Source of the DNA: Roseicyclus sp.
Lineage (GTDB): Bacteria > Pseudomonadota > Alphaproteobacteria > Rhodobacterales > Rhodobacteraceae
NCBI RefSeq assembly: GCF_965662675.1
Contig: NZ_CBFIIK010000003.1
Span: 13,401-77,400, forward strand
Direction of reading: 5' to 3'
Length of the DNA: 64,000 nt
Both the position numbers and the translations under genes were made by a program. Below, piece by piece: positions 2,677-61,859 of this stretch (the stretch's first letter is position 1; the number at the start of each line of letters is the position of its first letter). The notes under the pieces were generated by a model. That model worked only from the letters and a program-made list of their open reading frames with translations. It was not told where the DNA came from and ran no database searches.

Positions 2677-5100
2677 ATGACGCGCGCCCTTCCCCCCCAG
2701 ATCACCGGCTGGTTTTCCGCTCGCGGCTGGTCGATCCACCCGCACCAGCAGGCGATGCTGGACCGCGCCGATGGCCCCTGCCAATTGCTCATCGCGCCCA
2801 CGGGCGGCGGCAAGACGATGGCGGGCTTCTTGCCGACACTGGCCGAACTGGCCGACGGGGCGCATCAAGGCCTGCACACACTTTATGTCTCGCCGCTCAA
2901 GGCGCTGGCCGCCGATATCAAGCGCAACCTGACCGGCCCGATCACCGAGATGGGCCTGCCCGTCAGGGTCGAGGATCGCACCGGCGACACCTCCTCCCAC
3001 ACCAAGCGCAGGCAGCGCGCCGATCCGCCCCATATCCTGCTGACCACGCCCGAATCCCTTGCGCTGCTGGTGTCCTACGAGGATGCGCAGCGCACATTCG
3101 CGGGACTGCAGCGCATCATCGTCGATGAGGTTCACGCGCTCGCCGAAAGCAAACGCGGCGATCAGCTGATGCTGGCGCTGTCGCGGCTGTCCACACTGGC
3201 CCCCGGCCTGCGCCGTGTGGGCCTATCGGCCACCGTCGAGGACCCCGCCGCCATCGCCCGCATCCTCGCCCGCCACCCCGACCCTTGCGACATCTTGCAG
3301 GCCGATCCCGGCCCCGACCCCGATATCGCCATGCTCACGACCGAGGCCCCCCCGCCATGGTCGGGCGGCGGCGGCAGATACGCGATTCCAGCGGTGCTGG
3401 AGCAGGTCAAGCGCCACCGCACCACGCTGATCTTTCACAACACCCGCGCGCAGGCGGAGTTGTTCTTTCACCATCTGTGGCTGGCCAATGAGGACCAATT
3501 GCCCATCGGCATCCATCACGGCGCGCTGGCACGCGAGCAGCGCGAAAAGGTAGAGCAAGCGATGGTCGAGGGGCGGCTTCGCGCCATTGTCTGTACTGGC
3601 TCGCTCGATCTCGGGATCGATTGGGGCGATGTGGATCTGGTGATCCAGATCGGTGCGCCCAAGAACGTCAAGCGGCTGGTGCAGCGGATCGGGCGCGCCA
3701 ATCATCGCTACAACGCCCCCTCCAAGGCGCTGATCGTGCCGGCCAATCGCTTCGAGGTGATCGAATGCACCGCAGCACTCGACGCTGTGCGCGCCCATGC
3801 GCTGGACGGCGACACCGACCATGACGGGCCGCTTGATGTCTTGTGCCAACACATCCTGATCCGCGCCTGCGCCGGGCCGTTTCAAGCCGATGACCTCTAC
3901 CAAGAGATCCGCAGCGCGGGCGCCTATGCGGAGCTACCGCGCGACACCTTCGATCGCTGCCTCGATTTCGCGGCGACAGGGGGCTATGCGCTGCGCGCCT
4001 ATGACCAGTGGCAACGCCTGATCCAGCGCCAAGATGGCGAGTGGCAGTTGCGCGATCCCCGCCGGGCCGCGCGCATCCGCATGAACATCGGCACCATCGT
4101 GGATGCCGACAAGATGCAGGTCCGCTATCAGAAAACCCGCGGCGGCGCGCCCCTGGGCGAGGTGGAGGAATATTTCGCCGCCAGCTTGCGCAAGGGCGAC
4201 ACCTTCCTGATCGGCGGGCAGATCGTGCGTTTTGAAGGGATGCGCGAGATGGTGGTCGAGGTCAGCCGCACGCCGACACAAAAGCCCAAGATCGCCACCT
4301 TCATGGGCACGAAATTCGCCACCTCCACCCAGCTTTCCGACCGCATTCTGGCGATGTTCCGCCAAGACGATTGGCCCGATCTGCCCGGCCACACCCGCGA
4401 TTGGCTGGTGCTGCAAGCCCGCCTCAGCCGCCTGCCCGAACGGGACCGGCTTTTGGTAGAAACCTTCCCCCATGACGGCCGCGAACATGTGGTGGCTTAC
4501 GGCTTTGCGGGCCGCAACGCGCAGCAGACGCTCGGCCTTTTGATCACTCAGCGGATGGAAGAGATGGGACTGAACCCGATGGGGTTCGTGGCCACGGATT
4601 ACGCAACGCTGATCTGGGGGCTGGAGGCCACGACCGATCCAAAGCCGCTCTTCGCGCGCAAAAATCTGGTCGAGACCATGGCGGCATGGCTGGCCGATAA
4701 CGCGGTGATGAAACGCACCTTCAAGGCCAGCGCACTCATCGCGGGGCTGATCGAGCGCAACCAACCCGGCGGCATGCGCAAATCCGGGCGGCAGGCGACG
4801 TTTTCGACCGATATCCTTTACGACACGCTTCGCAAATACGACCCCGATCACATCATGCTGGCGATCACCCGGGCCGAGGCGATGCGCGGCCTGGTCGATT
4901 TCGGCCGGATCGAGGGCATGCTCGACCGTATCGGTGACCGGATCGATCATCTGCGCCTGTCCCGCGTCAGTCCGCTGGCCGCACCCCTTTTTCTTGAGCC
5001 CGGCCGTGTGCCGATTGCGGGCATGGCCGATCAGCGCCTGCTCGAGGCCGAGGCCGCGCGCCTGATGGCGGCGGCCGGTCTGGACAGCGTCCCAAGCTGA
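2677..5100 (+). CDS. Ligase-associated DNA-damage-response DEXH-box helicase (Lhr-like)
   Basis: 807 aa with APTGGGKT Walker A, DEVH box and helicase C motifs, followed 7 nt later by pdeM. Confidence 0.85.
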   Translation: MTRALPPQITGWFSARGWSIHPHQQAMLDRADGPCQLLIAPTGGGKTMAGFLPTLAELADGAHQGLHTLYVSPLKALAADIKRNLTGPITEMGLPVRVEDRTGDTSSHTKRRQRADPPHILLTTPESLALLVSYEDAQRTFAGLQRIIVDEVHALAESKRGDQLMLALSRLSTLAPGLRRVGLSATVEDPAAIARILARHPDPCDILQADPGPDPDIAMLTTEAPPPWSGGGGRYAIPAVLEQVKRHRTTLIFHNTRAQAELFFHHLWLANEDQLPIGIHHGALAREQREKVEQAMVEGRLRAIVCTGSLDLGIDWGDVDLVIQIGAPKNVKRLVQRIGRANHRYNAPSKALIVPANRFEVIECTAALDAVRAHALDGDTDHDGPLDVLCQHILIRACAGPFQADDLYQEIRSAGAYAELPRDTFDRCLDFAATGGYALRAYDQWQRLIQRQDGEWQLRDPRRAARIRMNIGTIVDADKMQVRYQKTRGGAPLGEVEEYFAASLRKGDTFLIGGQIVRFEGMREMVVEVSRTPTQKPKIATFMGTKFATSTQLSDRILAMFRQDDWPDLPGHTRDWLVLQARLSRLPERDRLLVETFPHDGREHVVAYGFAGRNAQQTLGLLITQRMEEMGLNPMGFVATDYATLIWGLEATTDPKPLFARKNLVETMAAWLADNAVMKRTFKASALIAGLIERNQPGGMRKSGRQATFSTDILYDTLRKYDPDHIMLAITRAEAMRGLVDFGRIEGMLDRIGDRIDHLRLSRVSPLAAPLFLEPGRVPIAGMADQRLLEAEAARLMAAAGLDSVPS

Positions 5101-7741: not shown

Positions 7742-9418
7742 TTAGAACAGGCCTTCGATCAGACCCGCCTCGTTCAGCCGGATGGTTTCCGAAGCCGGAA
7801 CCTTGGGCAGGCCGGGCATGGTCATGATCTCACCGCAGATCGCGACGACAAAGCCTGCCCCGGCCGACAACCGCACCTCGCGCACAGGGATCGTATGCCC
7901 CTCGGGCGCGCCGCGCAGATTGGGGTCGGTCGAGAAGGAATACTGCGTCTTGGCCATACAGACCGGCAGGTTGCCATAGCCCGCATCTTCCCACGCCTTG
8001 AGTTGCGCACGCACGCCGGCATCGGCGGTCACGCTGCCTGCACGGTAGATGCGCTTGGCGATGGTCTCGATCTTGTCCATCAGCCCCATCTCGTCGGGGT
8101 AGAGCGTGTGGAAATCGGCGCTGCCGCCTTCGGCGAGTTCCGCCACGCGGCGTGCCAGATCCTCGATCCCCGCGCTGCCATGCGCCCAATGCTTGCACAA
8201 GATCGCCTCGGAGCCTTGGGCCGCGACATAGGCTTTGACGGCCTCGACCTCGGCCTCGGTATCGCCCGCGAAATGGTTGATGCCCACGACGACCGGCACG
8301 CCGAAACCTTTGACGTTCTCGATATGGCGACCCAGATTGGCGCAGCCCGCCTTGACGGCATCGACATTCTCGGCCCCCAGATCGGCCTTGGCCACGCCAC
8401 CATTCATCTTCATCGCGCGCACCGTCGCCACGATCACCACCGCGTCAGGCGCAAGCCCCGCCTTGCGGCATTTGATGTTCATGAATTTCTCGGCCCCCAG
8501 ATCGGCACCGAAACCGGCCTCGGTCACGACGAAATCGGCCAGCTTCAGCGCGGTCTTGGTGGCGATGACGCTGTTGCAGCCATGCGCGATATTGGCGAAA
8601 GGGCCGCCATGCACGAAGGCCGGGTTGTTTTCGAGCGTCTGCACCAGATTGGGCTGCATCGCATCCTTGAGCAGCACGGTCATCGCCCCGTCAGCCTTGA
8701 TATCGCGGCAGTAGACCGGGGATTTGTCGCGGCGATAGGCCACGATCATATCGCCCAAGCGACGTTCCAGATCGGCCAGATCGCTGGCAAGGCACAAGAT
8801 CGCCATCACCTCGGAGGCAACCGTGATGTCAAACCCCGTCTGGCGCGGGAAACCGTTCGATACGCCACCCAGCGACACCACGATATCGCGCAGCGCGCGG
8901 TCGTTCATGTCCATCACGCGGCGCCAGACGACGCGGCGCTCGTCGATGCCCAGCGTATTGCCCCAGTAGATGTGGTTATCGATCATCGCCGACAGCAGGT
9001 TATGCGCGCTCGTGATCGCGTGGAAATCGCCGGTGAAATGCAGGTTCATCTCTTCCATCGGCACGACTTGCGCATAGCCGCCGCCAGCGGCCCCCCCCTT
9101 CATCCCGAAATTCGGGCCAAGGCTTGCCTCGCGGATACAGATCGCGGCCTTTTTGCCGATGCGGTTCAGACCGTCGCCCAAGCCCACCGTGGTCGTCGTC
9201 TTGCCCTCACCCGCAGGCGTGGGGTTGATCGCGGTCACCAAGATCAGCTTGCCATTGGGCCGGTCGGCCAGCGAGGTGATGAAATCCTGTCCGATCTTTG
9301 CCTTGTCATGCCCATAGGGCAAAAGCGCCTCGGTCGGAATGCCGAGCTTGTCACCGATCTGTTGGATCGGCTTTTTCTTCGCCTCGCGGGCGATTTCGAT
9401 ATCTGTCTTGAAGGCCAT
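7742..9418 (-). CDS. fhs: Formate--tetrahydrofolate ligase
   Basis: FTHFS pattern ([14 protein letters not shown]). Start set at [11 protein letters not shown] (ATG at 9418), preceded by GGGAAGGGAG. Confidence 0.93.
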
Positions 9419-10295: not shown

Positions 10296-12212
<1,917 letters not shown>

Positions 12213-12289: not shown

Positions 12290-13567
12290 TCAATGCGATT
12301 CCAAGAACTGGGCGAAATGGCCGCTGCCGGGGCGGAAAATGATCGCCGTCTGTGGCCCGATACCCAAAAGCGGACAGGCCACCAAATGATCGTCACGAAA
12401 CAGCGCAGGCCAAGCATAGGCCGCGCGCGCAGGCCCTGAAAACGCTTTACTTTCTGTGCGTTGCGCCCATCCATCGGGGCCAAGCGCGCGCAGCGTAACC
12501 CCCGAAGGGGCGGCTTTGCCCACCACCCAGCGCCCATCCCAGCATGCACCCGCGCAGGCCGGAATTTGCCGATCGCGCAAGGCCGCACTCTCGCGAGAGA
12601 GGCGGATCGCCGCAGCGCGCGGCGTTGCGTCCACCCCATGCAGCGTCCCGCCGCCACCCGCCAAAAGCCGGTCAAGCAACCCTTCGAGCGCATGGGCGCG
12701 CGGCCTGTAGGGGCTTGAGGCCACCCATTGCAGCGCAGCCGCCAAAAGTCGCATCTGGCTGTCACGCTCCACCCCGGCCAACCCATCGCGGTCGATCAGC
12801 AGGTCGCCGGTGGAAAGCGCATTCACCCGCTCTTCGGTCACGATCCGCCCCGCGATATCGGCGACACGCGCCCGGCATGCCTGTGCCGCCCGGGCCATGC
12901 GGTCGGCGGTCTGGGCAAGCCCCTCCACCGACAGCCCCAGTGTCGCGATCGCGTGTCGCGCGCGCACCCGGTCGAAGCGCGGATCATCATTGGAGGGGTC
13001 ATCAACGAATGGCGTCTTCAACGTCACCGCATAATGGCGCAGATCTTCGCGGCGTTCGGTCAGAAGCGGGCGCAAAAGCCACCATTGGCCGCTTGCATCG
13101 CGCACGGCGCGCGCCGGGGACATCGCGGCCAACCCCTCGACACCCGAGCCGCGCAAAAGCCGCAGCAAGACGGTCTCGGCCTGATCGTCTTGCGTATGGG
13201 CGAACAGCACATGCGCCAGATCGCCCCGCCACGCGCCGATCAGATCGCGCCGCGCCTGTCGCGCGGCATCTTGCAGATTGCCATGCCCATCCCACTGCCA
13301 GTGAAGCGTGTCATGCGCATGGCCCAAGGCGGCGCATTCGGCCGCGACCATCGCGGCCTCATCAGCGGCGGCGGGCCGCAACCCATGATCGATCGTCACG
13401 ACACGCAACCCGATCCCCATGACCCGCGCCCAAGCATGGGCCAAGGCCAGCATCGCCATGCTGTCGCCCCCGCCCGAGACGGCAAGACCGATGGCAGGCG
13501 GGAAATCAGGGCCGAGCAACGCGCCCATGCGCGCGGCAAAGCGCGCCTCGAGCGTGTCGGATGTCAC
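12290..13567 (-). CDS. tilS: tRNA(Ile)-lysidine synthetase
   Basis: PP-loop LAVSGGGDSMAL. GTG start forms a GTGA overlap with the cpoB stop. Confidence 0.88.
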   Translation of the reverse strand: MTSDTLEARFAARMGALLGPDFPPAIGLAVSGGGDSMAMLALAHAWARVMGIGLRVVTIDHGLRPAAADEAAMVAAECAALGHAHDTLHWQWDGHGNLQDAARQARRDLIGAWRGDLAHVLFAHTQDDQAETVLLRLLRGSGVEGLAAMSPARAVRDASGQWWLLRPLLTERREDLRHYAVTLKTPFVDDPSNDDPRFDRVRARHAIATLGLSVEGLAQTADRMARAAQACRARVADIAGRIVTEERVNALSTGDLLIDRDGLAGVERDSQMRLLAAALQWVASSPYRPRAHALEGLLDRLLAGGGGTLHGVDATPRAAAIRLSRESAALRDRQIPACAGACWDGRWVVGKAAPSGVTLRALGPDGWAQRTESKAFSGPARAAYAWPALFRDDHLVACPLLGIGPQTAIIFRPGSGHFAQFLESH

Positions 13568-17462: not shown

Positions 17463-17936
17463 TTACTCTCCGCCACCGTCAAGCCGGGGGCCGCCGGAAT
17501 CGGTCACCAGACCGATCTCGCGAAAACCACCTGCATTCAGTGCCCCCATGATGCGCATCACATCCTCATAGGGTATCGCGCCATCGGCACGCAGGAATAT
17601 GCGCGACGATGCACGCTCGGCGGCAATCGCCTGTAGACGGTTGATCATCTCCTCAGGTGCGACCGCGGTAGTCTGGATCATCACCGTTCCATCAGGGGCC
17701 AGCGTCACCGTGAGCGGCTCTTCCTCCTCCGACGGCAGCGCTTCGGCGGCGGTATCGGGCAGGTCGATGGGCACGCCCACCGTCATCAAGGGCGCGGCGA
17801 CCATGAAGATGATCAACAGGCACAAGATCACATCGACGAACGGCGTGACGTTGATCTCGGACATGGGCTTGAGATTGGCACGGCGGCCCCGTCCCCGGCG
17901 GCGTGAGCCGCTATTGGTTGCAACCGAGACACCCAT
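17463..17936 (-). CDS. tolR: Biopolymer transport protein TolR (ExbD family)
   Basis: MSEINVTPFVDVILCLLIIFMV motif. Its ATG overlaps the tolQ stop (TGATG). Confidence 0.9.
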   Translation of the reverse strand: MGVSVATNSGSRRRGRGRRANLKPMSEINVTPFVDVILCLLIIFMVAAPLMTVGVPIDLPDTAAEALPSEEEEPLTVTLAPDGTVMIQTTAVAPEEMINRLQAIAAERASSRIFLRADGAIPYEDVMRIMGALNAGGFREIGLVTDSGGPRLDGGGE

Positions 17937-18628
17937 CAGTCGAGCTGCCGCGACAGCAGGGTCGAAAACTCATCGGCGAAACCTTCCAGCCCGCTGACAA
18001 GACGATCGGCATCGGCACTGAGCATGTTATACAAGATCACCGCGGGGATGGCTGCCAACAGGCCCAAGCCCGTGGCCAGCAACGCCTCGGCGATACCGGG
18101 GGCGACGATGGCAAGCGACGTATTCCCGGAAATCGCGATTTCCTGAAACGAGCGCATGATCCCCCAAACAGTACCGAACAGGCCGACGAAAGGCGCCGCC
18201 GATCCGGTGGTCGCCAGAAATCCGAGACCTTGGGTCCAGCGTTCGCTTTCGCGCGCGATCGCCACATCCATCGAGCGGTCGACGCGCTGCTGCACCCCGG
18301 GGATCAAGGCGCCATCATCGCGCAAGGACCGCCGCCATTCGGTCATGCCCGCGACAAAAACGCGTTCATAGGCGCTGGCGGGTGCATCGGCGACGCGGTC
18401 ATAAAGCTCGTCCAGCGGCTCACCCGACCAAAATGCCGCGTCGAAAGCACTCGCATTGGCGCGTGCGCTGCGAAACATCTTGAACTTGGTAAAGGTGACC
18501 GCCCAAACCCAGACCGAGGCCACGATCAAGGCGATCATGACAAGCTGGACAGTTATGCTTGCACGGAAAAACAGCGCAATAACGGTGTAATCCGCCTGCT
18601 GCGCGACAGCGAGTGTTTCGGTTTCCAT
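17936..18628 (-). CDS. tolQ: Tol-Pal proton-channel protein TolQ (MotA/ExbB family)
   Basis: 230 aa from the ATG at 18628 (METETLAV), with a MotA/TolQ/ExbB C-terminal pattern. Confidence 0.9.
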   Translation of the reverse strand: METETLAVAQQADYTVIALFFRASITVQLVMIALIVASVWVWAVTFTKFKMFRSARANASAFDAAFWSGEPLDELYDRVADAPASAYERVFVAGMTEWRRSLRDDGALIPGVQQRVDRSMDVAIARESERWTQGLGFLATTGSAAPFVGLFGTVWGIMRSFQEIAISGNTSLAIVAPGIAEALLATGLGLLAAIPAVILYNMLSADADRLVSGLEGFADEFSTLLSRQLD

Positions 18629-25352: not shown

Positions 25353-25414
25353 GGATCGCCCTTACGCCCCTTCGCCGCCCGCGTCCATCGCCTCGAAAGC
25401 GCGGATCACCGCGT

Positions 25415-25489
25415 CATCTTTGCTTTTCAAATACTCCGGGGGTGCGGGGGCAGCGCCCCCGTGACCCGAGCCCCGCCAAGGGCGGGGCG
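25415..25489 (-). repeat. Structured repeat, copy A (tail + GGGGGCAGCGCCCCC hairpin + GCCCCGCC/GGCGGGGC hairpin)
   Basis: The reverse complement reads GGGGGCGCTGCCCCC..CCCCCGGAGTATTTGAAAAGCAAAGATG. It lies 3' of hss and about 60 nt 5' of the MFS ATG. Confidence 0.75.
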
Positions 25490-36516: not shown

Positions 36517-36538
36517 GCGCCCCAGAGTCCTTGTGTGC

Positions 36539-36602
36539 GGGGGGCGCTGCCCCCCGACGGCCCTTGGCCGTTCCCCCCGGAGTATTTGGGAAGCAAAGAT
36601 GG
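36539..36602 (+). repeat. Structured repeat, copy B
   Basis: GGGGGGCGCTGCCCCCC - ACGGCC/CTT/GGCCGT hairpin - CCCCCCGGAGTATTTGGGAAGCAAAGATGG, between the convergent slyX and MFS genes. Confidence 0.8.
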
Positions 36603-36626
36603 CAGGGGGTTCGCCTTGCGGAATGG

Positions 36627-41422: not shown

Positions 41423-41649
41423 GTCGGCACGCTATCGCAGCCGTCCGCGCGATGGAACCGCAACCTCGCGGTTCGCACAGAAAACGGGCGCAACCATGCG
41501 CGCGGATGGCTTGGCGCAAGGCAAGGCTTGCAATATCGCCGCAACACCGCTTTTCTAGAGGGCGGTCGTACAACTTTGGGGCCGCGCTCTACGCCGCATC
41601 GAGCGCCGGACGACCTCCCCGAACACGGGTATCGCGGCAGGCAAGTTTC

Positions 41650-43095
41650 ATGACGATCCGGTTTCTTTTGAACGGGGAACCTGTGGATGTCGATGCGCCC
41701 CCCACCGCGACGCTGCTCGATTGGCTGCGCGAGGAACGGCGGCTCACCGGCACCAAGGAAGGCTGTAACGAGGGCGATTGCGGCGCCTGCACGGTCATGG
41801 TGACCAATCCCGAAGGAACATCGCGCGCGCTCAATGCCTGCATCTTGTTCATGCCCCAACTCGCAGGTCACGCGGTCCGCACGATCGAGGGGATCGCAGG
41901 CCCCGACGGCGCACTGCACCCGGTACAACAGGCGATGGTCGATCATCATGGGTCACAATGCGGCTTTTGCACACCGGGCTTCGTGGTGTCGATGGCCGTG
42001 GCCCATCTGAACGGGCGGCACGACCATGACGATCAATTGGCGGGCAACCTGTGTCGTTGTACGGGCTATGCCCCGATCATTCGCGCCGCCGAAGCCGCAA
42101 CCACGGCCCCCATACCTGACTGGATGCGGGTTGATGCGGCCACCCTGGCGGCCTCACCCTTGTGTGTTTCACAAATATCCCCGGGGGGGCGCCATTCGAG
42201 CGCCACTGGTCCGAGCGACAATGGCGGCCGGGACAGACAGCCCCCCACTTGCCCGACATCCGCCGATGAACTCGCCGCTTGGTATCTGGACAACCCCGAC
42301 GCAACCTTGATCGCGGGGGCCACCGATGTGGGGCTTTGGGTGACCAAGGGCTTGCGCGATCTTGCGCCGGTCGCCTTCCTGAACCAATGCGCCGATTTGC
42401 GCGGGATTGTTGCCGATGACGAAACAATCAGCATCGGCGCGATGACCACAATCGCGGAACTCGGCGCATTCATCGCCGACCGCCACCCCGCCTTCGCCGA
42501 GCTGATCCGCCGCTACGGCTCGGTGCAAGTGCGCAATGCCGCCACCATCGGCGGCAATATCGCCAATGGCTCGCCCATCGGTGACAGCCCACCCGCGCTG
42601 ATCGCCTTGGGCGCAACACTGCACCTGCGCCGGGGCGATATACGGCGCAGCCTGCCGCTCGAGGATTTCTTTCTCGCCTATGGCAAGCAAGACCGCGCCG
42701 CCGGGGAATTCGTCGAGGCCGTCACGATCCCCGTCCAGCCGGACCATTTGCGCTGCTACAAGCTGTCCAAGCGCTTCGATCAAGATATCTCGGCGGTGTG
42801 CGGCGCATTCAACATCACGCTTGAGGGTGGCATCGTGACAGCCGCGCGCATCGCATTCGGCGGCATGGCCGGCACGCCCAAACGCGCCCATGCGGCCGAG
42901 GCCGCGTTGATCGGCCAGCCATGGGCCGACACCAGCATCACCGCCGCGCAAGACGCGCTTGCCGCGGATTTCACCCCGCTCTCGGATATGCGCGCCTCGG
43001 CCGACTACAGGCTGCGCAGCGCCAAAGCCATGCTGATGCGCTGCTTGCGCGAAAGCAGGGGCGAAGATGTGAACGTGCTGGCGGTGCAACCATGA
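41650..43095 (+). CDS. xdhA: Xanthine dehydrogenase small subunit (2Fe-2S + FAD)
   Basis: Starts [11 protein letters not shown], with [11 protein letters not shown] and CRCTGY clusters plus an FAD-binding domain. Confidence 0.92.
42166..42246 (-). repeat. Degenerate inverted copy of the structured repeat, in-frame in the xdhA interdomain linker
   Basis: GTTTCACAAATATCCCCGGGGGGG closely matches the copy E tail GTTTCAAAAATATCCCGGGGGG (one substitution, one extra C and one extra G). It is followed by the GGCGC/GCGCC hairpin and a C-run, and encodes [12 protein letters not shown]... Confidence 0.55.
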
Positions 43096-45434
43096 GCGCG
43101 CATGACAGCCTGCCGCATGATGCGGCCTGCCTGCATGTGACCGGGCGGGCGCGCTATGTCGACGATATTCCCACACCTGCCGATTGCCTGCATCTGGCCT
43201 TTGGGCTCTCGCCAATCGCGCGCGGCACGATCCGCGCCATGGACCTTGCCGCTGTCCGGTCGGCACCGGGCGTGGTCGAGGTGCTGGCGGGGACCGATCT
43301 CGACCCGATGCCCGATTGCGCCCCGGCCGCCCATGACGAGCCGCTCTTGTCGGACGGCACGATCCATTACGCGGGCCAGCCGCTTTTCTTGGTGGTCGCG
43401 ACAAGCCATCTGGCCGCGCGCCGCGCCGCACGGATGGCGCGCCTCGATCTGATCGAAGAGACACCGATCCTCGGCGTCGATGAGGCGCTCGCCGCCAATG
43501 CCCGTTTCGAGGACGGCCCACGCATCTATGCCAAGGGCGATGTCGCCGCCGCGATCGCAACGGCCGATCATGTGATCACGGGACAGATCACCCTTGGCGG
43601 ACAAGAGCATTTCTATCTTGAAGGCCAAGCCGCCCTCGCCTTGCCGCAAGACAACGGCGACATGGTGATCCATGCCTCGACCCAGCATCCGACCGAGATC
43701 CAGCACAAGGTCGCCGATGCGCTGGGCTTGCCCATGCATGCCGTGCGCGTCGAGGTGCGGCGCATGGGTGGCGGTTTCGGCGGCAAGGAAAGCCAAGGCA
43801 ATGCGCTGGCCATCGCCTGCGCCATCGCGGCCGCGCGCAGCGGCCGGCCCGCCAAGATGCGCTACGACCGCGATGATGATTTCGTCATCACCGGCAAGCG
43901 CCATGATATCGTGATCGCATACCGGGTGGGCGTCGATGCGACCGGGCGGGTCTTGGGGCTTGATTTCACCCATTACCTGCGCTGCGGCTGGTCGATGGAT
44001 CTATCGCTGCCGGTGGCCGATCGGGCGATGTTGCATGCCGACAATGCCTATGATCTGCCGGCCGCGCGCATCACCTCGCATCGGTTGCGGACCAATCACC
44101 AAAGCGCCACGGCCTTTCGCGGCTTTGGCGGGCCGCAAGGCATGGTGGGGATCGAGCGGGTGATGGATCATATCGCCCATCACTTGGGCCGTGATCCCTT
44201 GGAGATCCGGCGCCTCAATTACTATCCCGAGGCGCATGTGGCCCGGTCCGAGGCCTCCGGCGGGAGTATTTTTGAAGCAAAGATGGCCAAAGATGCGCCC
44301 CGCATCGGGATCACGCCCTATGGGATGGAGGTGCGCGATTTCGTCTTGCATGACCTGACCCAACGCTTGGCGCAATCTTGCGATTATGCCGGGCGGCGCG
44401 CGGAGATTGCGCGGTGGAACGCGCACCAGCCGGTGCTTAAGCGCGGCATCGCGCTCAGCCCGGTGAAATTCGGCATTTCTTTCACGCTCACCCATCTCAA
44501 CCAAGCGGGCGCGCTGGTCCATGTCTATCAAGATGGATCGATCCAGATAAACCATGGCGGCACCGAGATGGGCCAAGGCCTGTTCCAAAAGGTGGCGCAG
44601 GTGGCGGCAAGCCGCTTCGGCGTCGGCATAGAGCAAATCAAGATCACCGCGACAGATACGGGCAAGGTGCCCAATACCAGCGCCACGGCGGCCAGTTCGG
44701 GCACCGATCTGAACGGGATGGCGGTGCAAGCGGCCTGTGACACGATCCGGGCGCGCATCGCCACGCATCTGGCCGCGGTCCATGGCAATGACGATATCCA
44801 TTTCGGCGATGGCTGCGTCCATATCGGCCAAGATCACAGGCTGAGCTTCCGGGAAGCGGTACAGTCGGCCTATGCCGCGCGCGTCAGCCTATCGGCCACG
44901 GGCTTTTACAAGACACCCGATATCGCATGGGACCGCATCGCGGGCCAAGGGCAGCCGTTCTTCTACTTCGCCTACGGCGCGGCCTGCTCGGAGGTGGTGA
45001 TCGACAGCTTGACCGGCGAGAACCGCATCCTGCGCACCGATATCTTGCATGATGCGGGCGCAAGCCTGAACCCCGCGCTCGATATCGGGCAGATCGAGGG
45101 CGGGTTCGTGCAAGGTGCGGGATGGTTGACCTCGGAAGAGCTGGTCTGGGACGATCACGGACGGCTGCGCACCCATGCGCCCTCGACCTACAAGATCCCC
45201 GCCTGTTCGGACCGGCCGCCGGTGTTCAACGTCGACCTGTGGGACCAGCCCAACCGGGCCGAGACGATCTATCGGTCCAAAGCCGTGGGTGAGCCGCCCT
45301 TCATGCTGGGGATCAGCGTCTTGATGGCGCTCTCGGATGCCTGCGGGGCATGCGGGCCGCATTATCCCGACCTGCAGGCCCCCGCGACACCCGAGGCGGT
45401 ACTTGCGGCGATCGACCGGGCGCGTGGGCCATGA
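43092..45434 (+). CDS. xdhB: Xanthine dehydrogenase molybdopterin-binding large subunit
   Basis: ATGA overlap with xdhA; [24 protein letters not shown] and GGTEMGQG motifs. Confidence 0.95.
44229..44286 (+). repeat. Copy of the structured repeat, in-frame inside xdhB
   Basis: CTCCGGCGGGAGTATTTTTGAAGCAAAGATGG matches the tail of copies B and D. It translates to [11 protein letters not shown] inside a loop. Confidence 0.6.
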
Positions 45435-50889: not shown

Positions 50890-50912
50890 TCCGCGACATC
50901 GGTTTTTGGATC

Positions 50913-50943
50913 GGCCCGCCCTTGTGGCGGGCCGTTTCGTTTG
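50913..50943 (+). terminator. Rho-independent terminator of the BMP gene
   Basis: GGCCCGCC-CTTGT-GGCGGGCC followed by GTTTCGTTT. Confidence 0.75.
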
Positions 50944-50961: not shown

Positions 50962-51039
50962 AATTTTCATCCGAAAACTCGGGGGGCGCTGCCCCCGCCC
51001 GTGCCGGGCTCCCCCGGAGTATTTTCGAAGCAAAGATGG
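50962..51039 (+). repeat. Structured repeat, copy D (most complete, with both arms)
   Basis: AATTTTCATCCGAAAACTCGGGGGG-CGCTG-CCCCC-GCCCG/TGC/CGGGC-T-CCCCCGGAGTATTTTCGAAGCAAAGATGG. Confidence 0.8.
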
Positions 51040-51168
51040 CGCTGACGGGGTGCCATTCGGCACGCGTGTCGCTTTCGTGTCGAATTCGGTCGGGTGGGCG
51101 AGGCACGGCTTGCGCCGCTCGGGCAGGTAGGGTCAGCATGTTTGCGCGCTTTGCCCGAAGGACCGGCC

Positions 51169-60695: not shown

Positions 60696-60748
60696 ATGCG
60701 AAATCTCCTTCAGATCACGAGATAGGCCAAAGGGGCCGATCCTGCACC

Positions 60749-60813
60749 CCTTCTTCGTTTCAAAAATATCCCGGGGGGAACACCCGGCACGGGTGTGGGG
60801 GGCAGCGCCCCCC
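60749..60813 (-). repeat. Structured repeat, copy E
   Basis: The reverse complement reads GGGGGGCGCTGCCCCCC-ACACCCG/TGC/CGGGTGT-TCCCCCCGGGATATTTTTGAAACGAAGAAGG. It abuts the stop codon of the moeB-like gene. Confidence 0.8.
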
Positions 60814-61859
60814 TAAACGCCGCCGCAGACCGGGCAATCGCCCCGCCGCGCCAGCTTGATCTCGCGGCTTTCCGCCATCAAGGCATCATGGATCACCATC
60901 CGCCCGGCCAAGGGCACCCCCGCCCCGGTGATCAGCTTGACGGCCTCCATCGCCATCATCGCTCCGATCACACCCGGCAAGGCCCCGACGACGCCCGTTT
61001 CGGCACAGGTGGCCGACAGCCCGGGCGCGGGCGCTTGCGGAAAGATGCACGCCATGCAGGGCGCGCCGCGCGCCGGGTCATAGACCGTCACCTGCCCCTC
61101 CCAAGCCGAGATCGCGCCCGCCACGACCGGCTTGCCTGCGCGCACTGCGGCCCGGTTGATCATCGCGCGGGCAGCGAAGCTGTCGGTGCCATCGAGGATC
61201 AGATCATATTCGGCGAACAGCTCCGCCGCGATCCCCTCCTCCAGCGCCCGGTTATAGGGCCTGACCTCGACATGGGGGTTCAAATCCGCCATTGCCTTCT
61301 GCGCCGAAAAAACCTTGGGCATGCCTTGGCGCGCATCCGTGTGGATCACCTGCCGCTGCAAATTCGACAGGCTGACGGTATCGGCGTCGATCACGCCCAC
61401 CCGCCCCACACCGGCGGCAGCAAGATACAAAAGCGCAGGCGCCCCCAGCCCCCCCGCGCCCACGACCAGCACCCGCGCCGCCTTCAGCGCGCGCTGGCCC
61501 GACCCGCCGATCTCGCGCAGCGTGATATGGCGGGCGTAGCGCTCCAACTCCTCATCCGAGAACGGCCCCTTCGGTGCGGCTACAGGCGCGGCTTGCACGC
61601 TGCGATCCGCCCGCGCGCGCAACCATCCAAGCCCACCGCGATAGACCAGAACCACCCCAACCAAGATGCCCACGAACAACCATTCACCCAGCGAGCCACC
61701 CGTCGCCTGTCGCAAGGGATGCGTAATGGGCAGCACGATCTGCACCGCGACGACCGCAAGATAGAGCAAAGCCAGCATGACGAAGCGCGCCCGATAGGGG
61801 GTCTTCATCAGATGCCCCAAGCCCCAAAGCATTGCGCCCAGCGCCAGCACGAACACCAT
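60813..61859 (-). CDS. HesA/MoeB/ThiF-family adenylyltransferase with an N-terminal 3-TM extension
   Basis: RYARHITLREIGGSGQ...VLVVGAGGLGAP Rossmann motif and C-terminal CPVCG. Its ATG directly follows the dut stop (TGAATG). Confidence 0.8.
   Translation of the reverse strand: MVFVLALGAMLWGLGHLMKTPYRARFVMLALLYLAVVAVQIVLPITHPLRQATGGSLGEWLFVGILVGVVLVYRGGLGWLRARADRSVQAAPVAAPKGPFSDEELERYARHITLREIGGSGQRALKAARVLVVGAGGLGAPALLYLAAAGVGRVGVIDADTVSLSNLQRQVIHTDARQGMPKVFSAQKAMADLNPHVEVRPYNRALEEGIAAELFAEYDLILDGTDSFAARAMINRAAVRAGKPVVAGAISAWEGQVTVYDPARGAPCMACIFPQAPAPGLSATCAETGVVGALPGVIGAMMAMEAVKLITGAGVPLAGRMVIHDALMAESREIKLARRGDCPVCGGV

Follow-up and report, generated by a model that had tools for sequence, protein, structure and literature searches.

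A short REP/BIME-like repeat of Rhodobacterales read in-frame in the xanthine dehydrogenase genes xdhB and xdhA

Small intergenic repeats that give protein sequence are best known from Rickettsia, whose palindromic elements (RPEs), as far as they are summarised in PMC10969869 (citing Ogata et al. 2000, 2002), are ∼100–150 bp long and have a large share of their copies in many unrelated open reading frames (ORFs). The same summary (citing Delihas 2007) describes intragenic ERIC sequences, ∼127-bp MITE-like elements with terminal inverted repeats, as small intergenic repeats that sometimes form in-frame fusions. The CGTC superfamily of REP sequences is characterised by an unpaired CGTC (or TGTC/CCTC) end, an 8–9-bp stem that begins with A/T pairs, a 4–5-nt loop and a short CCA-like tail (Di Nocera et al. 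2013, PMC3733652).

We analysed a stretch of 64,000 nt from Roseicyclus sp. (GCF_965662675.1; NZ_CBFIIK010000003.1, positions 13,401–77,400, forward strand; hereafter the window), in which a repeat family has one copy within xdhB and another, inverted, within xdhA. A sequence-only reading of this DNA had likened the xdhB copy to an RPE. The likeness, drawn from description and not from sequence, holds in that the repeat is also intergenic, lies in-frame in conserved enzyme genes and adds peptide at a fold-compatible position. However, the family here consists of units of 35–85 nt, nearly all of them intergenic and coding only in xdhB and xdhA; the window copy in xdhB has no palindrome, and the same two sites are filled across a whole order. 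The many-ORF habit of RPEs was not seen: metagenome contigs gave 55 exact matches to the tail, and of these the ones at the xdhB site (2 contigs) alone were in-frame coding. With ERIC the family shares the presence of a small intergenic repeat within coding sequence, and differs in having no inverted termini; a MITE was rejected, the 5′ end (GGGGGCKCTGCCCCC) and the 3′ end (..AAGCAAAGATGG) not being inverted repeats of each other.

The REP/BIME sequences and REPINs of gamma-proteobacteria resemble the family in their GC-rich hairpin modules, high copy number, preference for sites downstream of genes with the sense orientation, mosaic or tandem clusters built from few module types, homogeneity within and divergence between genomes, and occasional intragenic copies. 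REP sequences have a conserved unpaired GTAG at one end and are associated with a RAYT transposase gene; in the aligned copies of the family here no GTAG was visible, and its most conserved part is a long, non-palindromic tail. Membership of the CGTC-tagged REPs was rejected, CGTC occurring at the junction of hairpins 1 and 2 in 9 of 85 distinct copies and the stems being GC-only. The family is a short interspersed REP/BIME-like repeat of Rhodobacterales; it thus appears to be of a kind already known, while the literature, searched by sequence strings and by topic, gave no published description of the family itself or of such in-frame insertion in this lineage, for which the earlier reading likewise knew of none. 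In a free-living high-GC lineage, it would constitute a second, independent case of small intergenic repeats giving protein sequence.

Modules and genomic setting of the family

Copies of the family are built from a conserved G5–6...C5–6 hairpin, a second, GC-rich hairpin that varies and may be absent, a C-run and a tail of ∼25 nt with the conserved sequence GGRKATTT-N3-4-...AAGAWGAAG; canonical copies measure 45–85 nt. Four such copies lie between genes in the window.

25406–25464, minus strand: canonical intergenic copy lacking hairpin 2; the ORFs on either side both run on the minus strand
36536–36609, plus strand: canonical intergenic copy with hairpin 1 (GGGGGGCGCTGCCCCCC), hairpin 2 (GACGGCCCTTGGCCGTT), C-run and tail, downstream of slyX
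50979–51045, plus strand: canonical intergenic copy, its tail nearest to that of the xdhB copy (14/15 variable-part positions)
60745–60816, minus strand: canonical intergenic copy with a second tail variant (GGGATATTTTTGAAACGAAGAAGG), downstream of a 348-aa ORF

All four are downstream of genes and in sense orientation, and hairpin 1 of the copy at 60745–60816 begins in the TAG stop codon of the 348-aa ORF upstream. Orthologues of two of them were found in locus L081, at 3457–3517 between the SlyX and MFS genes (for 36536–36609) and at 17889–17945 between the Bmp and DAO/GCV_T genes (for 50979–51045). Tandem hairpin 1–hairpin 2 modules with 12–13-nt linkers were present in L093, L100, L102, L109 and L111, and long and solo subtypes also occur.

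The family is overwhelmingly intergenic; across ∼1.8 Mb of loci, the clearly coding sites were those in xdhA and xdhB only. Coding status was judged by spanning-ORF tests and by gene calls in orthologous loci, an ad hoc GC3-based gene finder having been dropped as too strict, and the borderline coding calls in L092, L093, L122 and L125 proved to be non-coding or 5′-UTR. Rfam 15 gave no gathering-level match in the window, the matches around the 51-kb copy being sub-threshold and to an adjacent terminator-like hairpin.

The in-frame copy in the XdhB loop

The gene and the segment concerned are the following.

43092–45434, plus strand: xdhB coding sequence, molybdopterin subunit of xanthine dehydrogenase, 780 aa
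44226–44312, plus strand: hypervariable XdhB loop, 29 aa, between the helix ...RRLNYY and TPYGMEV
44253–44286, plus strand: in-frame repeat copy of the hairpin-less ‘solo-tail’ subtype (GCCTCCGGCGGGAGTATTTTTGAAGCAAAGATGG), with an exact tail motif and a profile match

The window XdhB matched R. capsulatus XdhB (1jro_B) over its full length (E=0) and is 100% identical to the NCBI protein ‘xanthine dehydrogenase molybdopterin binding subunit [Roseicyclus sp.]’ (P0001). Its frame is unbroken, with ORF 42921–45434 enclosing the coding sequence, and the peptide read through the segment is the one given in the sequence-only reading. The 34 nt at 44253–44286, which encode 11 residues of the loop, are a member of the repeat family read in-frame in xdhB. 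The string CTCCGGCGGGAGTATTTTTGAAGCAAAGATGG, by which the copy had been noticed, is indeed present, occurring once in the window at 44255–44286, one base downstream of the start assigned to it at 44254. The window contains the family tail GGAGTATTTNNNAAGCAAAGATG exactly four times, at 25415–25437 (minus), 36579–36601 (plus), 44263–44285 (plus) and 51016–51038 (plus), and with 0.00 matches expected in shuffled sequence a chance resemblance is excluded. Furthermore, a profile built from the four intergenic window copies alone matched 44262–44287 significantly (E=1.1e-4 in a 1.7-Mb search space).

With only GCCTCCGGCGG and the tail, the xdhB copy belongs to a hairpin-less subtype, which its 34-nt unit GCCTCCGGCGGGAGTATTTnnnAAGCAAAGATGG (44253–44286) matches. 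The unit recurs, behind unrelated upstream sequence, at five sites outside xdhB (L095/L128, L108, L121, L122 and L136), on metagenome contigs from the same lineage. Degenerate hairpins had been proposed upstream of the tail; the family models aligned to the tail alone and to nothing at 44229–44252, and the region 44226–44290 folded no better than shuffles (z=+0.59), which speaks against them. Of the proposed in-frame palindromic repeat, the repeat origin and the frame were confirmed, the copy itself being without hairpin and not palindromic. Inside the copy, five consecutive codons end in A or T (AGT ATT TTT GAA GCA), which happens nowhere else in xdhB, a gene with a GC3 of 0.78; among them are the rare AGT (4.7% of Ser codons), ATT (6.3% of Ile codons) and GCA (8.4% of Ala codons).

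Among 81 XdhB genes the loop measured between 5 and 73 aa. The window loop of 29 aa is expanded, as had been supposed by comparison with eukaryotic XDH, because human XOR has KEGDL alone (5 aa) between NLY and THF and four outgroup bacteria have 7–8 aa. The loop was 5–10 aa in 18 further loci, nearly all from Rhodobacterales, and element-free genomes as a group had loops of 5–14 residues; a homologous loop of the window's length and sequence, which would have refuted the earlier reading, was not found among them.

In R. capsulatus XDH, residues 378–401 are missing from 1JRO and are stated to be far from the binding region (PMC3311054). Alignment with 1jro_B showed that these residues, DPPERGGLSAPPSPPEPIATKKTQ, are exactly the loop homologous to that of the window. 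The XdhB segment lies in a surface loop for which the crystal structure of the R. capsulatus enzyme shows disorder, the location that the sequence-only reading had put up for checking. Residues 380–403 were coil with pLDDT<50 in an AF2 model of mediocre overall quality (mean pLDDT 66). In an R. capsulatus genome, the DNA of this loop, GGGGGGCTGTCTGCCCCCCCGAGCCCCCCCGGGCGTAATGCCGCCAAGAAGAAG, matches the family model (E=2e-4); the unmodelled XdhB loop is itself a repeat copy at the DNA level. Translation of the segment in Roseicyclus is expected from the integrity of the gene and from the expressed, active R. capsulatus homologue. A separate loop module, DLTSRGA / ADLAGRG...RYGGAHSPVP, was considered as a second dispersed repeat and rejected, its tblastn matches being confined to XdhB loops.

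A second copy in xdhA and occupancy across Rhodobacterales

The gene upstream of xdhB also contains a copy, which had gone unmentioned in the earlier reading.

41650–43095, plus strand: xdhA coding sequence, Fe-S/FAD subunit, 481 aa, starting at the Met at ORF residue 67
42151–42245, minus strand: inverted in-frame long-subtype copy with hairpin 1, a long internal module, C-run and tail (GGGGATATTTGTGAAACA...)

R. capsulatus XdhA (2w3r_A) matched query residues 67–547 of ORF 41452–43095 (E=6e-182), and the L081 xdhA orthologue is annotated with 481 aa. The copy was matched by the family profile at 42165–42245 on the minus strand (E=5e-4) and by the tail profile from 42151 (E=1.6e-3). It is translated on the plus strand, within the linker joining the [2Fe-2S] and FAD domains, which is 18 aa longer in the window XdhA than in that of R. 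capsulatus. As in xdhB, the copy is the one place in the gene where five A/T-ending codons follow one another. Copies at the identical site and in the same, inverted orientation were found in xdhA at 28 loci.

In a sample of 81 XdhB genes (the window and 80 loci, the latter partly retrieved via the loop peptide pattern FEAKMAKD, with a possible sampling bias), 38 loops matched the tail model, all 38 in one orientation and frame. All six frames are free of stop codons in 73–96% of intergenic tails; with six frames mostly open, the uniform frame and orientation point to shared founding events. The occupied XdhB site is common to many related genera, including the species with the solved enzyme structure. 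Within the genus, GCC(T/G)CCGGCGGGAGTATTTnnGAAGCAAAGATGG is common to the window, L081 (91%), L001 (82%) and L082 (R. persicicus), the Roseicyclus orthologues with the same copy being 78–91% identical in XdhB. The xdhB copy is thus neither recent nor private, being orthologous across Roseicyclus; it is older than the Roseicyclus radiation, and the window lineage has shortened the loop of the genus. Loop states were ordered on a quick neighbour-joining tree of XdhB without support values. Losses are also seen: L083, 92.6% identical to L071, has 54 nt of the element gone and a tail remnant kept, and in L139, deposited as R. capsulatus and 90% identical to the PDB sequence, the loop measures 14 aa and no element could be detected.

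Likeness within genomes and origin of the xdh copies

The tails of the in-frame copies resemble other copies in their own genome. Variable-part identity between xdhB and xdhA tails was 0.74 in the same genome and 0.51 in other genomes, and between xdhB and intergenic tails 0.65 and 0.49, respectively; between xdhB tails of different genomes it was 0.57. The differences between same- and other-genome values gave permutation p≤2e-4, a figure that ignores the phylogenetic non-independence of the loci, and each genome was represented by ∼22 kb, with its own family variant sampled from 1–5 copies. In L009 and L075, the xdhA and xdhB copies are near-identical, hairpin 2 included. L007 and L020, which share 89.5% aa identity, have hairpin 2 sequences that are unrelated but each perfect; perfect palindromes are kept in the in-frame copies of other genera, and the rare A/T-ending codons have likewise been retained in the xdh copies. 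The tails of the window and L082 are identical at 33 of 34 positions, against a gene-wide third-position identity of 0.60. From these patterns we infer one or a few founding insertions followed by ongoing homogenisation, by gene conversion or replacement. Gene conversion is suggested by the patterns of similarity; neither a conversion tract nor a donor nor a mobility enzyme came to light. Selection on a nucleic-acid motif could explain equally well why the tail is so highly conserved, in coding copies as in intergenic ones.

It appears likely that the xdh segments are tolerated in-frame repeat copies, derived from early founding insertions and later homogenised with the genome's own repeat pool. 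Colonisation of the xdhB site would date from early in the history of Rhodobacterales and would have happened on one or a few occasions, and the inter-domain linker of XdhA would be a second permissive site, likewise colonised early, by an inverted copy. Both sites would have remained in the evolving repeat population, conversion or local replacement keeping the variant of the own genome, while in individual lineages copies may have been trimmed or deleted, or the loop extended with other sequence. An insert would be tolerated if its length were a multiple of three and it had no stop codon; since the loop is solvent-exposed, intrinsically disordered and far from the active site, any encoded peptide might be accepted, and a function of the insert in the enzyme would be neither needed nor indicated. 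Less probably, the xdhA and xdhB copies would be no passive relics: over very long times and throughout an order, coding stretches of a housekeeping enzyme would have been rewritten again and again from the non-coding pool (by element-intrinsic homing or conversion), or the conserved bipartite tail would be kept by selection as a binding or processing signal in frame. If so, the disordered loop and the linker of R. capsulatus XDH would be by-products of a system acting at the nucleic-acid level.

The match of in-frame copies to the tail variant of their own genome could also arise if lineages had acquired their copies separately and recently, through site-, orientation- and register-specific integration or a preference for existing copies. 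Such recurrent insertion would fit the wholly different hairpin 2 of close relatives, the presence and absence of copies at ∼90% protein identity, and the tandem BIME-like intergenic clusters, in which copies accumulate side by side. We nevertheless consider it unlikely, given the single frame and orientation of 38/38 xdhB copies and the opposite orientation of 28/28 xdhA copies when six frames are usually open, the orthology of the copy across Roseicyclus, and the nature of L083 as a deletion derivative and not an empty site; moreover, the copies showed no target-site duplication (in a non-systematic look), no terminal inverted repeats and no transposase associated with them. A single ancient insertion with purely vertical descent, the likeness being residual or kept by peptide selection, would account for the constancy of site, orientation and frame throughout the order and for the recurring peptide motif GG(D/S)IS..K(K/M)K. 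It is very improbable, however, as genes with a GC3 of ∼0.78 still hold rare codons ending in A/T as well as perfect palindromes, xdhB tails are nearer to copies of the same genome (0.65–0.74) than to the xdhB tails of other genomes (0.57), and intergenic copies hold the same nucleotide motif without coding constraint. Selection on the peptide is made implausible by the disorder and the hypervariable length of the loop.

A dual use of the site, in which the tail (and elsewhere the hairpins) would serve as a nucleic-acid signal for protein binding or for RNA processing or stability, for example in regulating the xdhABC transcript, seems doubtful to us. Such a signal would explain why, across Roseicyclus, the tail half-sites GGAGTATTT and AAGCAAAGATG hardly vary on either side of a free 3-nt spacer, whether the copy is coding or intergenic, why coding sequence retains palindromes, why a single operon has held two copies throughout an order, and why the intergenic window copies share their sense position behind genes. 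It is harder to reconcile with the many lineages that have lost one or both copies and retained the operon, with a window xdhB copy that has neither hairpin nor significant fold, with the lack of an Rfam family match, and with the antisense xdhA and sense xdhB copies, which would hardly serve one RNA-level role. Nothing was found in favour of a chance resemblance or an assembly or annotation artefact, which the identical NCBI protein, the orthologues in independent assemblies and metagenomes, and the homologous loop of the crystallised R. capsulatus enzyme make scarcely credible.

The two sites, at which dozens of genera have copies that are complete, shortened, replaced or deleted, offer a natural experiment, in which the homogenisation of a repeat family and the tolerance of a protein to inserts could be measured. 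In practice, the loop may serve as a permissive site, already in place, for tagging XDH; the repeat can confound xdh alignments, gene trees and codon-usage scans. In R. capsulatus XDH, a textbook bacterial molybdoenzyme, the unmodelled XdhB loop and the linker in XdhA would both be accounted for as translated, tolerated and homogenised repeat copies.

The repeat family and its affinities

Across the 64 kb of the window there are exactly four instances of the tail core GGAGTATTTNNNAAGCAAAGATG, against none predicted by dinucleotide-preserving shuffles, and a variant copy is also present:

25415-25437, minus strand: tail core, exact match
36579-36601, plus strand: tail core, exact match
44263-44285, plus strand: tail core, exact match, inside xdhB
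51016-51038, plus strand: tail core, exact match
60745-60816, minus strand: variant family copy with the architecture common to the three core copies outside xdhB

In the four copies outside xdhB, a hairpin, GGGGG(G)CGCTGCCCCC(C) (hairpin 1), is followed optionally by a further GC-rich one of variable sequence (hairpin 2), then by a C-run and the tail; hairpin 2 is absent from 22 of 85 copies (about a quarter). The 36.5-kb and 51-kb intergenic copies are orthologous to copies in a second Roseicyclus genome (L081), there lying between annotated genes. Within Roseicyclus the copy that follows slyX is orthologous, and the gene order hisG/hisZ-like, hisS, slyX, (MFS), dnaE, xdhA, xdhB, xdhC, ABC transporter with Bmp-family binding protein (window ~33-51 kb) is conserved between Roseicyclus and Rhodobacter (window, L081, L082, L138, L139). 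The 60.8-kb copy directly abuts the coding sequence of a 348-aa ORF (60813-61859, minus strand), the first G of hairpin 1 being the last base of that upstream ORF's TAG stop (60813-60816, minus strand). About 40 nt upstream of the 51-kb copy, a hairpin with a T-run behind it, resembling a terminator (GGCCCGCCCTTGTGGCGGGCCGTTTCGTTT; 50912-50941, plus strand), gave weak sub-threshold Rfam matches to several sRNA families, at their 3' ends. Roseicyclus tails come in two variants, GGAGTATTTnnnAAGCAAAGATG (found in xdhB and at most intergenic sites; window tails 36579, 44263, 51016 and 25415) and GGGATATTTnnGAAAC(G/A)nAGAAG (the xdhA copy at 42151, the 60.8-kb copy at 60750, and L081 at 17917).

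The tail motif has 55 exact matches in the metagenomes scanned, mostly canonical hairpin-bearing copies and often in BIME-like tandem clusters. Tandem hairpin 1-hairpin 2 modules with 12-13-nt linkers and a single tail behind them form BIME-like mosaics at L093, L100/L123/L132, L102/L104/L135, L109/L120/L133 and L111, and a 'long' subtype (L089, L105/L115/L119) carries an internal module, ..TGTCGCTCGGACC.RTGGCGCGAC.ATGGCGAC...

No Rfam family matches the repeat, and no published description was found within the limited literature searched. Judged from sequence, the family appears REP/BIME-like by architecture and location, but no GTAG tag is visible in its aligned copies. Membership among CGTC-tagged REPs fails, the tag occurring in 9 of 85 copies with differing stems, as does membership among MITEs, the copies having no inverted termini. 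Rickettsia palindromic elements (RPEs; PMC10969869), to which the sequence-only reading had likened the xdhB copy, share the in-frame behaviour of the xdh copies, but this family does not colonise ORFs as RPEs do: xdh provides its only coding sites among the 55 metagenome matches and ~1.8 Mb of loci. The xdh copies also behave similarly to the intragenic REPs of Di Nocera et al. (PMC3733652). The in-frame xdh repeat is a known kind of phenomenon, of which this family is a further case.

The in-frame copy in the XdhB loop

A profile built from the four non-xdhB window copies alone matched xdhB at 44262-44287 (E=1.1e-4 over the 1.7 Mb searched), and the in-frame copy is real and statistically secure. 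The string singled out in the sequence-only reading occurs once, at 44255-44286, and translation gave the open frame and peptide it had described; the window XdhB is 100% identical to an NCBI protein from Roseicyclus sp. That reading also saw degenerate hairpins upstream of the tail. These were not borne out: 44229-44252 aligns to the hairpin part of no family model, and the fold of 44226-44290 is no better than that of shuffles (z=+0.59). The unit GCCTCCGGCGGGAGTATTTnnnAAGCAAAGATG recurs with unrelated upstream sequence at five independent metagenome sites (L095/L128, L108, L121, L122, L136). The xdhB copy, 44253-44286, is hence no decayed palindrome but a full representative of a "solo-tail" subtype that has no hairpins. 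This subtype is also intergenic in another genus (L025 at 14762, tail profile).

The alignment of the window XdhB with its R. capsulatus counterpart (1jro_B, E=0) runs the full length of the protein. Between ...RRLNYY and TPYGMEV its loop comprises 29 residues (44226-44312) as against KEGDL in human XOR, an expansion correctly recognised from the sequence; four outgroup bacteria have 7-8 residues, and another 18 loci, almost all from Rhodobacterales, have 5-10. The R. capsulatus loop has 24 residues, DPPERGGLSAPPSPPEPIATKKTQ (378-401, numbered by alignment to 1jro_B). In a molecular dynamics study of this enzyme, residues 378-401 are missing from 1JRO, 30-377 and 402-777 were modelled, and the missing section is described as distant from the binding region (PMC3311054). 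In L138, a genome deposited as R. capsulatus whose XdhB is 93% identical to the PDB entry, the loop is encoded by GGGGGGCTGTCTGCCCCCCCGAGCCCCCCCGGGCGTAATGCCGCCAAGAAGAAG, a family copy with hairpin 1 intact (E=2e-4), and the xdhB repeat copy is thereby directly connected with the loop left unmodelled in the solved structure. In an AF2 model of the window XdhB, mediocre overall (mean pLDDT 66), residues 380-403 are coil with pLDDT<50. No catalytic role is indicated for the repeat-encoded peptide.

Occupancy of the xdhB and xdhA sites

We compared 81 loops, from the window and 80 XdhB loci of GTDB species representatives (nearly all Rhodobacterales, four outgroups), with lengths of 5-73 residues. 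At the DNA level many of them are full elements, e.g. GGGGGCTGTCTGCCCCCC-GCCGATCCTCCGGATCGGC-CCCCCCCGAGGGTATTTCGGCCAAGAAGAAG in L009, or solo tails, GCCTCCGGCGGGGATATTTC..AAGATGAA. The tail profile matches 38 of the 81, with orientation and reading frame identical in 38/38. Among 83 intergenic tails, any given frame of the six is free of stops in 73-96%, so stop codons do not account for the uniform orientation and frame at xdhB.

Many long loops carry a second conserved module, (R)LETADLAGRGAxKVE..G...R(Y/F)GGAHSPVP (proteins P0017, P0021, P0022, P0030, P0034, P0035, P0040, P0046 and P0068; L005, 11183-11293), or a shorter D-L-T/A-S-R-G-A core (DLTSRGA form; L015, L029, L031, L034, L041, L043, L045, L052, L054, L056, L061, L070, L080). 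By tblastn it was found nowhere else in the loci, being confined to XdhB loops. After the tail, this module of ~34 residues (RLETADLAGRGAxKV...RYGGAHSPVP) is present in other species of Roseicyclus and in neighbouring genera; it is absent from the window lineage.

The same tail/family profile revealed a partner copy in the operon:

42151-42245, minus strand: inverted in-frame family copy within xdhA (41650-43095), in the stretch that links the [2Fe-2S] domain to the FAD domain

The in-frame repeat proposed from the sequence alone is real, but older and far more widespread than supposed. The window XdhA linker is 18 residues longer than that of R. capsulatus; a copy occupies the same position in 28 loci, inverted in 28/28, with a median linker of 65 residues with a copy vs 55 without. 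In L138 the xdhA copy (7904-7951, minus strand; E=1e-8) has the reverse translation FTLAEISSGVRGQTAP, corresponding to the FTLAQLSSGVRGQTAP stretch of the crystallised XdhA. The window xdhA copy is of the "long" subtype; its internal module (..TGTCGCTCGGACCAGTGGCGC..) recurs in the copy within L016 xdhA and, between genes, in metagenome loci L089 and L105.

Age, proposed homogenisation and loss of the in-frame copies

Four Roseicyclus genomes carry the same xdhB unit at the same place, which indicates that the copy predates the radiation of the genus.

xdhB units in Roseicyclus, with XdhB identity to the window
Window: GCCTCCGGCGGGAGTATTTTTGAAGCAAAGATGG (reference)
L081, 91%: GCCGCC...TATGAAGC...
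L001, 82%: ...TCCGAAGC...
L082 (R. persicicus), about 78-83%: ...TTCGAAGC...

Over the 15-nt variable part of the tail, xdhB copies are 0.74 identical to the xdhA copy of the same genome and 0.51 to those of other genomes, 0.65 and 0.49 to intergenic copies, and 0.57 to xdhB copies of other genomes; the same-genome excess is significant for both the xdhA and intergenic comparisons (permutation p<=2e-4). In two loci the xdhA and xdhB copies form a near-perfect inverted repeat within the operon, ~2 kb apart and near-identical over 57-68 nt including the variable hairpin:

L009 (Rhodovulum kholense): 9083-9150, minus strand, vs 11157-11224, plus strand
L075 (Ruegeria marisflavi): 9044-9100, minus strand, vs 11147-11203, plus strand

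These pairs suggest recent conversion between copies, and could form a long-range RNA duplex or an inversion substrate. In L016, a congener of L009, the middles are quite different at both sites, and L007 and L020 (XdhB 89.5% identical) have unrelated hairpin 2 sequences, both perfect palindromes. The window and R. persicicus tails are identical at 33/34 positions, third-codon-position identity being only 0.60 gene-wide. Within xdhA and xdhB, five A/T-ending codons follow one another only in the two repeat tails; AGT accounts for 4.7% of its synonymous set, ATT for 6.3% and GCA for 8.4%, at a GC3 of ~0.78.

Since site, orientation and frame are uniform, we propose one or few founding insertions at the xdh sites. 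The resemblance to copies of the same genome, the intact palindromes and the codons that have not ameliorated would then reflect continuing homogenisation of the in-frame copies, with other family members acting as gene-conversion donors or replacing them locally. As both sites are disordered, selection would demand no more than a length divisible by three and freedom from stop codons. Site-specific re-insertion may operate instead of gene conversion, and the strongly conserved bipartite tail may itself be a functional nucleic-acid motif. Persistent sites co-evolving with a repeat pool are an evolutionary pattern deserving follow-up.

Deletions are also seen. L083 (92.6% identical to L071) has lost 54 nt of the element and kept a tail remnant. 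L139, the other genome deposited under R. capsulatus (90% to the PDB sequence), combines a decayed xdhA copy with a 14-residue XdhB loop in which no family element is detectable. At ~90% XdhB identity (L138, L139, P0128-P0132), loops hold either the full element (EPPETGGLSAPPSPPGRNAAKKKQT) or 10-14 residues without it (APPIIKNSQTKAQT, APPAGPGATAVSQT), and element presence varies among close relatives of the crystallised R. capsulatus enzyme.
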